NCBI GenBank assembly: GCA_017937135.1
Contig: JAGBEE010000042.1
Location: 11,885 to 75,884 of the forward strand
DNA: 64,000 nucleotides
Origin: Clostridia bacterium
GTDB taxonomy: Bacteria > Bacillota > Clostridia > Oscillospirales > CAG-272
Reading direction: 5' to 3'
The notes below the pieces were generated by a model that ran no database searches, was not told the DNA's origin, and saw only the letters and a list, made by a program, of their open reading frames with translations. A program made the translations under genes and the position numbers. Positions within the stretch are counted from its first letter, which is position 1; each line of letters starts with the position of its first letter. This document shows positions 4,985-21,824 of the stretch, piece after piece.

Positions 4985-5141
4985 ATAATCTCCTTTATGA
5001 GCATATAAATTTATACTTATTTTATCATATAAATAATTTTGTGTCAATAAAGGGAGAGGAGTAAAAATGGAAAAATGAAGCTTTATCAAAAGCGAACAGC
5101 AGGGATATAAATAAAAAATTACAAAAAAATGAAAAAAACAC

Positions 5142-5170
5142 TTGACAAGGTAAAATGCTTATGATATAAT
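5142..5170 (+). promoter_or_regulatory. Strong sigmaA promoter for the tRNA pair
   Basis: TTGACA-17 bp-TATAAT with extended -10 TG and upstream A-tracts. Confidence 0.88.
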
Positions 5171-19439: not shown

Positions 19440-20530
19440 TTTGCCTCCATATTTATTAGTTCTTTATATCTTAATTTTTTGGGAATTGATTTTTGCGCGC
19501 TAACGCTCTTTCCCTCGCTTATAAATGTATCAACCGCTTTTTGAACCTTGTTTAAATCGCTTTTGTCTGAATACAAAATAAGCATATCTACATCGTATTC
19601 CTTTTTGTCAAAGCATATTTTTTCTAAGAGATTTGTGTAAATAGCAAAGCCTACTCCGCTTGATGTCTTGCCCATTTTTTCAAGAAGCTTGTCGTATCTG
19701 CCACCAAAAAGCACGCTCTCAAATATGCCCTTTATAAATCCGTTGAATACTATTCCGTTATAGTAATTCATATCGTTTACTATTGAAAAGTCGATACGAA
19801 TATTGTCAAGGTCCTCTGTGCCCTCAAGCATTTTTATAAGCGACTTTAATTCATTTACTGCCAATTCAAGCTCATTATTAGCCTTGAAGCTATCAAGTCT
19901 TTCAAATACTGATTTTGGGCTACCATAAATGCCGACAAAGCTTGAAAGCATTTGCGCCTTTTCATCATCAACGCCATATTTTTGGCATATTGCGCTTATT
20001 TCGTGTGCGCTCTTCTTTTTTATACATTCAGCAATTTCACTCTTAAAATTATCATTTGCGCTTATGCTATTTAAAAGCGCAGACAATATTCCCATATGCG
20101 AAATCTCTAAAACATAGTCGCTTGAAACTGTATTTAAGGTCTTCATTGCAAGACAAAGCGTCTCGTACATATCGTATAGGTCAATATCACCTATACATTC
20201 AAGACCCATTTGCATAATTTCCTCAAATTCTCTTGTGTTTCCGGAAATTCTATATACATTTTCATTATAATATACCTTGTTTTTTATGCCCCTTGCATCG
20301 GATGCATTTTTAATAATTGACAAGGTTACGTCCGGCTTTAATGCAAGAAGCTTGCCATTTGTATCAGTGAAGGTTATTATACCGTCGCCAACTAAAAAAT
20401 CCTTGTTTTTTGCATATAGGTCATATTCCTCAAATTTATTCATCTTGTATGGAAGATAACCATACTTTGAATATAGTGAGCGTAATGCCACTATAATTTT
20501 TTCCTCACTCTTTAGGTATTTCTCTATCAT
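19436..20530 (-). CDS. hisZ: ATP phosphoribosyltransferase regulatory subunit
   Basis: HisRS-like: LKPDVT, YYNGIVF, GGRYD; adjacent to short hisG. Confidence 0.9.
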   Translation of the reverse strand: MIEKYLKSEEKIIVALRSLYSKYGYLPYKMNKFEEYDLYAKNKDFLVGDGIITFTDTNGKLLALKPDVTLSIIKNASDARGIKNKVYYNENVYRISGNTREFEEIMQMGLECIGDIDLYDMYETLCLAMKTLNTVSSDYVLEISHMGILSALLNSISANDNFKSEIAECIKKKSAHEISAICQKYGVDDEKAQMLSSFVGIYGSPKSVFERLDSFKANNELELAVNELKSLIKMLEGTEDLDNIRIDFSIVNDMNYYNGIVFNGFIKGIFESVLFGGRYDKLLEKMGKTSSGVGFAIYTNLLEKICFDKKEYDVDMLILYSDKSDLNKVQKAVDTFISEGKSVSAQKSIPKKLRYKELINMEAK

Positions 20531-20817
20531 TTCTTGCCCTCTAATCTATCAAGTATCATTGAATATCCACCGTTTCCATATTCAAGGCATCTATTAACTC
20601 GGCTAATTGTTGCTGTGCTCATGCCTGTTTCCTTTGTTATATCGGCATAGTTTGCGCCACTTCTTAGCATACTTGCTGCTTTAAGTCTTTGAGCTATTTC
20701 TAAAACCTCTTTTACTGTGCAGGCATCCTCGAAGAATTTATAGCACTCTTCTACTGAATTTAATGATAATATTGCTTCAAACAGCTTATCTACTGCTTCA
20801 TTATGCAATTTGTTCAT
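20527..20817 (-). CDS. yerC: YerC/YecD TrpR-like regulator (probable his operon repressor)
   Basis: ECYKFFEDACT..E...IAQR and STATISRV.RCL.YG motifs; first gene of the his operon. Confidence 0.88.
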   Translation of the reverse strand: MNKLHNEAVDKLFEAILSLNSVEECYKFFEDACTVKEVLEIAQRLKAASMLRSGANYADITKETGMSTATISRVNRCLEYGNGGYSMILDRLEGKK

Positions 20818-20860
20818 TTTATGCTCCTTTTTATCATTGGTAAAAAAATTTATGTTTTAA

Positions 20861-20908
20861 CGCTTTAGTGTACTAAAATATTATAATACTTTTATTTTAT
20901 ATTGTCAA
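20861..20908 (-). promoter_or_regulatory. his operon sigmaA promoter with adjacent palindromic operator
   Basis: Minus strand TTGACA (20908-20903)-17 bp-TATAAT (20885-20880), directly followed by TTTAGT-GT-ACTAAA. Confidence 0.8.
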
Positions 20909-20950
20909 TAGTTTATATTATATTTATGTAAGAAAAAACAGATGCACAAA

Positions 20951-21428
20951 TGCGTGTTATCCTTAACGGAGAACACGCAATGAATTGCAACCTTGCGGTT
21001 GCATGAATTGAAAGCTGTGCTTTCGTGAATTGCCTGCGGCATGAATTGTGCTTTACGGCACATTGGTTGCAATTCAATTCATGTGAGCGACGAATTGCAC
21101 AGCAATTCCGCGAGCAAATCATGGCGGAGCCAATTCATGATGCGTATGCATCAATTCATTCATAAAAACGAACAGAGCAAGAATAGAAGGAGGTTTATCC
21201 TTTCACTCTTGCTCTGTTAGTATAAAGTGATATTCTTTGCTGACGCAAAGAGTGATATTGTCGCACAGCGACAGTGATATTGAAGCCTTGTGGCTTCAGT
21301 GATATTCTATTCGCCCTAAACTTGCGTAGCAAATATAACTCGGCATAAGCCGAATATCACTGCGTAGCAATAGAACTCGCCAAAGGCGAATAGAGTTAGC
21401 GTGATACTCCGTTAAGAGTATCACGCTA
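20951..21428. repeat. Composite non-coding palindromic element: two mirror arrays, a central hairpin and related terminal hairpins in inverted orientation
   Basis: ATGAATTG-type x4 then CAATTCAT-type x4 (20980-21159); AGTGATATT x4 then AATATCACT-type x4 (21226-21397); end hairpins share CTTAACGGAG on opposite strands. Confidence 0.85.
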
Positions 21429-21446
21429 TTGTGCATCTGTTTTTAA

Positions 21447-21824
21447 TTATTTTATTACTGCAATAAGCTCAACCTCTACAAGCGCGCCCTTTGGTAAATC
21501 CTTTACTGCAACACAGCTTCTTGCTGGCTTTTGAGTAAAGTATTTTGCATAAACACCATTGAAGCTTGCAAAGTCGTTTATATCGTATAGGAAGCACGTA
21601 GTTTTTACTACATTTTCAAAGCTTGTGCCTGCTTCCTCTAAAACTGCGCCGAGGTTTTTCATAACCTGCTCAGTTTGCGCTTCAATATCGGTTGCTTCTA
21701 TATTTCCACTCTCTGGATTTATCGGAATTTGTCCTGAGGTATAAAGCATATTTCCACAAATTATCGCCTGTGAATATGGTCCTATTGCTCCAGGTGCTTT
21801 ATTTGTTGCTACTTTTTTTAACAT
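21447..21824 (-). CDS. ridA: RidA-family enamine/imine deaminase
   Basis: [26 protein letters not shown]. Confidence 0.93.

Follow-up and report, generated by a model that had tools for sequence, protein, structure and literature searches.

Mosaic intergenic repeats, such as the bacterial interspersed mosaic elements (BIMEs) of E. coli and the BOX elements of S. pneumoniae, are built from a small set of modules that vary in number and orientation; they fold strongly and are located at gene 3' ends. The Correia/NEMIS and ERIC stem-loop miniature inverted-repeat transposable elements (MITEs) of 3' untranslated regions and the terminator-targeting group IIC introns have inverted ends with TA, are transcribed together with the gene upstream and land preferentially at terminator hairpins. 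Here, we analysed a putative element of this kind, ~480 bp long (20951..21428), located between the stop codon of ridA and the yerC/his promoter in a 64-kb stretch of DNA from a Clostridia bacterium. This whole stretch is hereafter called the window, and coordinates without a contig number refer to it. The source genome (G000) is a 1.85-Mb metagenome-assembled genome (MAG) of 42 contigs, designated by C-numbers, while the other G-numbers designate the genomes of relatives. An initial annotation of the window, made from its letters alone, had described the interval as a non-autonomous element similar to repetitive extragenic palindromes (REPs) or to REP doublets forming hairpins (REPINs) and mobilised in trans, or else as a structured non-coding RNA, and most of the tests that it named came out in favour of this description.

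As described in PMC3337134, REPINs associate two inverted REPs with a variable, hairpin-forming spacer, have A/T-run flanks suggesting terminators, and accompany a single-copy REP-associated tyrosine transposase (RAYT) gene. By analogy, the element studied here appears closest in logic to REPINs, and also near to mosaic repeats. Like the REPIN/RAYT system of Bertels and Rainey, it consists of multi-copy extragenic imperfect palindromes forming an inverted pair around a variable hairpin-forming spacer, with A- or T-run flanks and a putative single-copy HUH Y1 gene lying beside a possibly cognate hairpin. The inverted REP pair is found in the two terminal hairpins of the window, and full-length units end with a REP and a REP-derived inverted end. 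By contrast, its spacer comprises 330-430 nt of organised arrays where that of REPINs measures tens of nucleotides, it is nested in a host hairpin, its link to a RAYT is seen in only part of the genomes, and its hosts are Clostridia instead of Proteobacteria.

The likeness to BIME and BOX is one of general make-up. In these repeats, constant palindromes are combined with variable linkers; in the present element it is the linkers that stay constant, each with a type-specific complementary partner, and the hairpins that vary. Unlike for MITEs and group IIC introns, neither a parent insertion sequence nor a certain target duplication was found, and the element has none of the intron features or the reverse transcriptase of group IIC introns. 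Furthermore, it is inserted inside a hairpin loop and not behind the terminator, which is where the canonical members of the Rfam family Gut-1 are located. Gut-1, to which one array of the element is similar, is listed in PMC2864571 (Weinberg et al. 2010) as 'human gut only' and rated 'Y' for RNA, with no function given in that listing. Neither Gut-1 as a repeat nor the present element was described in any paper found by our literature search, which covered passages of PMC2864571 outside its supplements.

Taken together, our results lead us to favour, by a modest preference, a REPIN/BIME-like non-autonomous mosaic repeat in which two Gut-1-type units meet tail to tail.

Organization of the element

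The interval consists of two complete units, B on the plus strand and C on the minus strand, placed tail to tail and joined at one T-hairpin (Table 1), a junction that leaves a REP hairpin at both outer ends. The left and right terminal hairpins have the same loop core in inverted orientation and were found where the initial annotation had placed them. Other parts of that description required adjustment: the central hairpin with a 12-bp stem (21171-21218) is present, but its stem lies inside a longer hairpin with 24-nt arms; the two mirror arrays also exist, but each already combines a forward array with its own mirror; and the hairpins do stand at the proposed bounds, but the symmetry of the element continues outward to 20929-21449.

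Unit anatomy was established from 61 public units plus those of the source genome, oriented inward from the REP hairpin. The common order is REP, X, h0, three to four repetitions of a linker M followed by a hairpin, X'', three to four repetitions of a linker M' followed by a hairpin, and the T-hairpin. In unit B of the window, copies of (A/G)TGAATT start at 20980, 21003, 21025 and 21041 and are followed by copies of AATTCAT; the AATTCAT/AAATCAT linkers of the second half are the reverse complement of those of the first. In unit C, the four AATATCACT linkers read AGTGATATT on the plus strand, where they are found at 21226, 21251, 21273 and 21298, with a spacing of 25, 22 and 25. The central T-hairpin is followed by CGUUUUUAU on the minus strand, and homologous T-hairpins separate the array from a further module, U, in full-length units elsewhere. 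This central hairpin is likely the real end of ridA transcripts, a terminator reading which is our own, the hairpin having remained unflagged in a scan for consensus terminators.

Table 1. Coordinates of the element, its constituent modules and the adjacent genes in the window
Feature	Position	Strand	Description
REP-like terminal hairpin, unit B	20951..20979	+	TGCGTGTTATCC / TTAAC / GGAGAACACGCA; 12-nt arms, 92% complementary
Unit B first half	20980..21064	+	X (ATGAATTGCAACC), hairpin h0, four (A/G)TGAATT linkers alternating with variable hairpins
Unit B second half	21065..21167	+	X'' (GGTTGCAATTCA, complement of X), AATTCAT/AAATCAT linkers alternating with hairpins
Central T-hairpin, common to both units	21168..21221	.	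arms 21168-21191 and 21198-21221, 24 nt, 83% complementary
Unit C second half	21222..21316	-	minus strand is sense; four AATATCACT linkers alternating with variable hairpins; X'' 21307-21316
Unit C first half	21317..21396	-	X (complement 21385-21394), h0, degenerate GTKMTATT linkers alternating with hairpins
REP-like terminal hairpin, unit C	21397..21428	-	TAGCGTGATACTC / 6-nt loop / GAGTATCACGCTA; 13-nt arms, 100% complementary
ridA terminator, proximal (5') arm	21429..21444	-	inverted repeat; begins 2 nt past the ridA stop
ridA terminator, distal (3') arm	20933..20949	-	reads TTGTGCATCTGTTTTTT on the minus strand, ending in a U-tract
ridA (context)	21447..21824	-	PF01042, E 1.7e-44; reads into unit C
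yerC/trpR-like gene	20527..20908	-	PF01371, E 4.3e-27; heads the his operon, downstream of the element

Nesting in terminators behind genes

The outward symmetry takes the form of a 43-nt imperfect inverted repeat (20929-20971 and 21407-21449, 84%), 16-17 nt of which lie outside the terminal hairpins. These outer nucleotides are the two arms of the ridA intrinsic terminator. The predicted terminator has 16-nt arms and T6 on the minus strand, lies just 3' of the stop codon (21447-21449, minus strand), and its stem encloses the whole multiloop in the minimum-free-energy (MFE) folds of both strands. As the distal arm of this outer stem ends with T6 in the sense of ridA, the stem is that of the ridA terminator and, judging from these sequence features, the element sits in its loop.

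This arrangement is not limited to the window. Together with nine other copies of the source genome, the element is bordered by locus-specific inverted repeats, each full-length copy with definable bounds having a different one, and two solo REP hairpins of this genome form the tip of such locus-specific stems. In public MAGs, 26 of 50 hairpins have, within 900 nt, a partner matching at least 9/10 nt of their outer flank, against 5/50 for a control flank. The flank-partner distance is 301-450 nt for 14 of these, and 6 are adjacent, corresponding to solo hairpins. When the analysis was re-run, the 24 flank pairs obtained were mostly A-rich before the proximal arm (21) and T-rich after the distal arm (20). 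With the strand set by the hairpin loop, an open reading frame (ORF) of at least 80 aa ends on the same strand at most 90 nt before the hairpin in 52/75 cases, compared with 121/790 random positions, and in the source genome a stop codon reading into the element is located 14-37 nt from the REP end in 10/15 elements. These flanking inverted repeats and stop-codon counts place the elements inside bidirectional terminators, right behind genes and in a preferred orientation.

Single-strand folding and compensatory changes

On both strands, the region 20930-21450 folds with a much lower energy than its dinucleotide shuffles. The RNA MFE of the plus strand reaches -225.4 kcal/mol, versus -135.8 +/- 6.1 kcal/mol for the shuffles (z -14.67; 0/100 as good), and that of the minus strand -221.8 kcal/mol (z -13.12).

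Seven types of linker M were distinguished: GTGATATT and ATGAATT, both found in the window, GTGATGTT, GTTATGA, GTGAAGTT, TCGATAT, and the GTGAAAT of canonical Gut-1. For all seven, M' is the exact reverse complement of M. Among the 51 units with a recognisable centre, 38 have a second half in which reverse complements of M occur at least twice and outnumber M itself. The X/X'' helix, with a median length of 11 nt, differs in sequence from one type to another while its complementarity is kept, and was found in 49/61 units versus 14/61 when their interior was shuffled. In an alignment of 17 C-type copies from 11 genomes, 95.5% of the cells are paired, against 32-50% in slid controls, with 98% for helix 4, which belongs to the first half of unit C. 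Eleven pairs of this alignment have changed on both sides, a number reached by 1/500 shuffles, and its covariation score of 0.125 versus 0.061 is reached by 0/500 shuffles, figures of this kind being inflated by the relatedness of the copies.

Five example units were folded without constraints, using RNA and DNA parameters. For 4/5 of them the MFE fold was a ladder, with every M paired to an M' and the hairpins branching from it; under RNA parameters, a form closed by X/X'' was favoured for unit C of the window. Covariation and folding therefore point to a single-stranded fold, which could be adopted by RNA or by a DNA strand alike. An assignment of the strand from the mismatches in unit stems (G-T versus A-C counts of 10:2 for first-half stems and 9:11 for second-half stems) was discarded as confounded, since the linker itself gives a U-G pair. 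The loops of the sense strand are of the T-N-C type in the first half and of the G-N-A type in the second. G-N-A triloops closed by C-G are unusually stable in DNA; the pattern being symmetric between strands, it favours neither RNA nor DNA.

Relation to the Rfam Gut-1 motif

Searched against the Gut-1 model (RF01706), array C reached 42.6 bits at 21225-21310 of the plus strand and 39.4 bits at 21328-21398 of the minus strand, under the gathering score of 50 bits, and on both strands it aligned over the full model (positions 1-77), with its three variable-stem hairpins and constant linker. A match to a known Rfam family had been proposed as an argument against a mobile repeat. Array C does resemble such a family, although below its gathering score, and because Gut-1 is itself uncharacterised and behaves as part of the repeat, the match refines the repeat reading and does not refute it. 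The source genome holds 19 Gut-1 hits, the best at 46.6 bits and all under the cut-off, and an Rfam scan of 12 of its loci, with E up to 0.01, gave nothing beyond Gut-1 and a tRNA.

At the scale of the order, Gut-1 exceeded the cut-off in 50 of 151 sampled genomes, and a single genome had as many as 28 scored hits. Near-identical across several families, the nine loci with the highest scores (85-91 bits) lie ~35-45 nt behind the 3' end of a tRNA, a tmRNA or a tRNA-like sequence, with a bidirectional terminator between the two. In 8/9 of them a second, weaker Gut-1 hit (42-48 bits) lies just downstream on the opposite strand. Given this mirror second hit, the published motif is, on sequence grounds, one half of a larger module with two-fold pseudo-symmetry, of which the window has diverged versions. 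Gut-1 and the window share three to four short hairpins closed by A-U/U-G, a constant purine-rich linker and a distribution in gut Clostridia, and bona fide Gut-1 members of the same order have the same mirror partner. They differ in their linker, GUGAUAUU or AUGAAUU in the window versus GUGAAAU in Gut-1, and the Gut-1 model contains neither the mirror array, the X/X'' helix, the terminal REP-like hairpin nor the terminator nesting, all of which characterize the element of the window.

In the 300-0 nt upstream of canonical Gut-1, three loci (L112, L114 and L116) carry tRNA/tmRNA-like ends (...CCA) after ~100 nt of conserved repeated sequence. ARAGORN did not call these ends as tRNAs, and they may be tRNA ends that were duplicated in part, or a different RNA element.

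Copies in the source genome and in public data

The terminal hairpin, which the initial annotation had predicted to be multi-copy, was matched 17 times in a genome-wide search of G000, versus 0 for a control pattern, and had matches in 28 of the 41 genomes compared. Thirteen GCGTGAT..ATCACGC hairpins were identified in this genome, intergenic wherever they were examined. The right half of the element (array C and its hairpin) recurs with 78-96% identity at seven or more further loci (C36, C3, C35:76961, C22, C40, and twice on C17) plus two contig ends. Both of these ends, C35:1-69 and C4:1-69, carry one and the same 69-nt piece of array C (99% identity), and assembly breaks in the source MAG are due in part to this repeat family. 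A full-length unit of this genome measures ~370 nt and comprises a REP hairpin (TAGCGTGAT...ATCACGCTA, with a loop core of the CTTAACGGA type), the array and its mirror, the T-hairpin, a U module of ~100 nt and an inverted REP-derived end. The U module (e.g. C17:38461-38600 and C40:26350-26490) is kept among copies, some with an extra inserted sub-module, and gave zero matches in an Rfam scan with E up to 0.01.

Unit B is rare in the source genome, with one partial copy at C33:67719-67881, and multi-copy in relatives such as G024. Its second half is shared with C33:67719-67842 (93% identity), its terminal-hairpin variant is found again at C33:67855 and in relatives, and its first-half module occurs in at least 10 places of G024, with 82-86% identity.

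Including the source genome, DNA matches were detected in 28 of 41 genomes, that is, in 21/24 of the genus and 6/16 from other families. In public genomes, the terminal hairpin was found in at least 119 stretches, and all 80 of those listed are MAGs of uncultured Clostridia from animal guts, including one labelled Candidatus Scatosoma, a member of Clostridia incertae sedis. The loop of the terminal hairpin is flipped relative to the arrays in 3/17 aligned copies (G003, G001 and G015; alignment columns 248-280), the stem being unchanged, as inversion of the palindrome or independent insertion of a solo hairpin would produce. A flipped loop was also observed at C17:9459 of the source genome. A phage or plasmid origin was rejected, as the plasmid search gave zero matches and the phage search a single one, in which 97 nt match the mirror half of array C at 79%. 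It corresponds to positions 5071-5168 of MT835815.1, a 17-kb contig obtained from human faeces, named 'Bacteriophage sp.' and lacking annotation.

Evidence on mobility

The invariance of the interval across related genomes had been proposed as an argument against a mobile element, and the ridA-yerC interval was found to vary: 0/16 relatives with both genes in one locus have the element, and in 7/16 the spacer, of 113-178 nt, contains the conserved promoter block and a plain terminator. From this comparison, the element is taken as non-ancestral at ridA-yerC. Copies with 91-96% identity occur in other species between unrelated genes, with unalignable flanks. In two public DNA runs, contigs end at the terminal hairpins (20977/20979 and 21400/21402), and the hairpin loop is flipped in the 3/17 aligned copies. 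This evidence is indirect but consistent, and suggests that the element is mobile.

The source genome contains a single RAYT-like gene (C16:6439-6939), which is intact and whose 167-aa product contains an HUH motif as well as a YxxNP tyrosine. Its only PDB hit is 4ER8, the E. coli TnpA-REP (E 0.0033), and its protein cluster has 5 members, all unnamed. A perfect palindrome starts 15 nt past the stop codon of this gene, on its 3' side only, with the same outer stem as the hairpin of the element and a missing loop core; it is one of the 2 non-canonical hairpins among the 13 of this genome. Across relatives, 3/23 RAYT loci abut sequences of the family. We thus regard the RAYT-like enzyme as the most likely mobiliser of the element, a tentative choice made with clearly less than even confidence.

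At five RAYT loci of relatives (L093, L095, L096, L101 and L106), the RAYT paralogues are bordered by arrays of a classic GC-rich REP of the GTAGGGGCGG...CCGCCCC type, and two different REP systems therefore coexist in the order.

An IS630-type transposase was rejected as the source of the TA ends, the corresponding DDE_3 domain being found 0 times in the source genome, 0 times in the genus and in 1/41 genomes, the latter without hairpin matches. No pair of terminal hairpins in the source genome encloses an ORF, and no autonomous parent of a MITE was found, although MAGs may have lost such a parent.

Proposed mechanism and points against it

According to the REPIN/BIME-like interpretation, the element would spread by transposition of a folded single strand whose terminal hairpins would be recognised by the RAYT-like HUH tyrosine transposase. 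Transcription of ridA would proceed through the proximal terminator arm (21444-21429), the REP hairpin, unit C in sense orientation and the central hairpin. Unit C would in this way be transcribed passively as the 3' untranslated region (UTR) of ridA, ending at the central hairpin, and unit B, together with the distal U-tract arm, would lie behind this hairpin. The M/M' linkers would zip into a ladder of short helices with branching hairpins, generating a compact multiloop closed by the arms of the ridA terminator. Since the modules each close on themselves, the MFE folds keep the 16-bp host stem closed and the terminator could stay usable. Thanks to such self-folding, a terminator might remain intact in spite of a 480-nt insert, and the 3' end of the mRNA may be stabilised, as it is by REPs.

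Several observations weigh against this interpretation, and a first set concerns the mobiliser. The RAYT-like protein falls under both curated cut-offs, with 63.3 bits for NF047646 (NCBIfam REP_Tyr_transpos, cut-off 80) and 19.9 for PF01797 (Pfam Y1_Tnp, cut-off 23). The co-occurrence with HUH genes, which the initial annotation had suggested testing, is only weak across the 40 relatives compared, where the RAYT family is present in 16/25 hairpin-positive genomes (at least 2 terminal-hairpin matches) versus 4/15 hairpin-poor ones. Within the genus, the corresponding proportions, 15/20 versus 2/4, do not differ significantly. Four well-assembled genomes that are 96-99% complete and have 5-10 hairpin matches (G013, G022, G026 and G031) gave no RAYT match. 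The nearest RAYT orthologues are followed by ordinary terminators, and most other paralogues have flanking REPs of a different, classic type. The 80 public hairpin loci (558 kb) contained zero RAYT homologues, a result that is uninformative for an action in trans.

A second set concerns transposition itself. An empty ridA-yerC site was looked for, as the initial annotation had suggested: the element is missing from the 16 relatives, but no empty site with the same terminator appeared among relatives or contigs. In the two public DNA runs no contig spans the element, the one joint, which connects 20979 to 21092, matching another copy type, and contigs cannot prove absence. Transposition intermediates were not seen. 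TA adjoins both outer ends of every full-length unit inspected, but since it also occurs at the inner edge of the hairpin, it may be part of the palindrome, and a target duplication cannot be claimed. Finally, the near-identity of canonical Gut-1 across families could equally reflect a strong functional constraint.

Competing explanations

A more ambitious extension of the same idea, which we consider possible but speculative, is that Gut-1, instead of being a small RNA in its own right, represents half of a 'zip-coded ladder' module with two-fold pseudo-symmetry, this module being the body of an undescribed mobile family of gut Clostridia that would home, as folded single strands, into the apical loops of intrinsic terminators or land behind tRNA terminators. 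The insertion would be harmless as all parts, the type-specific M/M' linkers included, pair internally and the arms still meet, and the linker code would stop families from cross-pairing.

A structured RNA useful to the host, which in the 3' UTR would for instance assist the terminator, block 3' exonucleases or sequester a protein that binds the single-stranded linkers, with a copy number reflecting selection and not ongoing transposition, seems unlikely to us. It would agree with the sense strand of the units being the mRNA strand of the upstream gene in the 52/75 public cases and in most copies of the source genome, with canonical Gut-1 following the direction of the tRNA/tmRNA at 9/9 top loci and its near-identity across families, with the covariation of hairpin stems next to constant linkers, and with the rating as RNA given to Gut-1 by its authors. 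Family sequences also appear in contigs of two metatranscriptome studies, at a summed depth of up to 559 against 0 to ~3 for flanking genes, but such RNA-library contigs show neither strand, ends nor transcription and were not counted as evidence. Against a one-strand RNA, the second Gut-1 hit on the opposite strand, present in the window and in 8/9 canonical loci, would be needless, and no gene precedes unit B of the window on the sense strand of this unit. Moreover, the loops are mostly triloops where RNA usually has tetraloops, a terminator-like hairpin stands directly ahead of the array in canonical loci, and the presence of several linker types in one genome is awkward for a single binding protein.

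We give still less credit to a mobile element moved by other means, whether a DDE transposase with TA as its target, an enzyme that the MAG has lost, or replication and recombination templated by hairpins, the hairpin beside the RAYT-like gene then being just another insertion. The TA at both outer ends of the units, the several hairpin-rich genomes devoid of RAYT, the loop flipped in 3/17 copies, which suggests palindrome-mediated inversion, and the propensity of MAG assemblies to lose insertion sequences are all compatible with this explanation. However, the only genome with DDE_3 among the 41 has no hairpin matches, no ORF was found between paired terminal hairpins of the source genome, and we estimate at ~0.7% the chance that 1/13 hairpins falls behind the only RAYT gene among ~1800 genes.

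The last alternative, linker arrays serving as protein sites on duplex DNA (iteron, centromere, nucleoid-protein sites, or BIME-like gyrase sites behind active genes), can be considered very improbable: the 7-8-bp repeats, direct then inverted with a 16-25-bp spacing, their shared YGAW-like core in all linker types and the location of elements after tRNA genes, which are strongly transcribed, or between convergent genes would fit, but the spacing is unphased (16, 22, 23 and 25 bp in the window; 20-25 bp in canonical loci), the spacers are always hairpins with compensatory changes and X/X'' covary, neither of which duplex DNA requires, no associated gene was found, and plasmids and phages gave zero matches and one weak match, respectively.

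These results provide a genomic identity for an orphan Rfam family that had remained without function or context beyond 'human gut only' since 2010, with a model that describes half of a larger symmetric module, and would extend the REP/REPIN concept to uncultured Clostridia. They also offer a clean natural example of hairpins free to vary while linkers and their mirror copies covary, and the element is a known origin of assembly breaks in these MAGs. If insertion in terminator loops is true, the element would constitute a useful terminator marker, and it could serve as a model of how mobile DNA spares its host.

Locus context and additional observations

The location proposed by the initial annotation, between ridA and the his promoter, agrees with the Pfam assignments of the two neighbouring genes and with a sigma-70 promoter of yerC/his (20908..20880, minus strand; TTGACA-17-TATAAT) matching the consensus at 12/12 positions. 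The distal terminator arm and its U-tract lie ~20 nt upstream of the -35 box of this promoter. The promoter block around 20880-20908 is kept in the ridA-yerC spacers of relatives. In line with the earlier view that the interval encodes no credible protein, the six ORFs inside the element (45-69 aa) had zero matches in a Pfam search.

A second, unrelated intergenic repeat of ~90 nt, starting after a GGGGC...GCCCC terminator hairpin, was observed in the source genome (C17, ~300-440) and also in the ridA-yerC spacer of another species (G055, locus L059).

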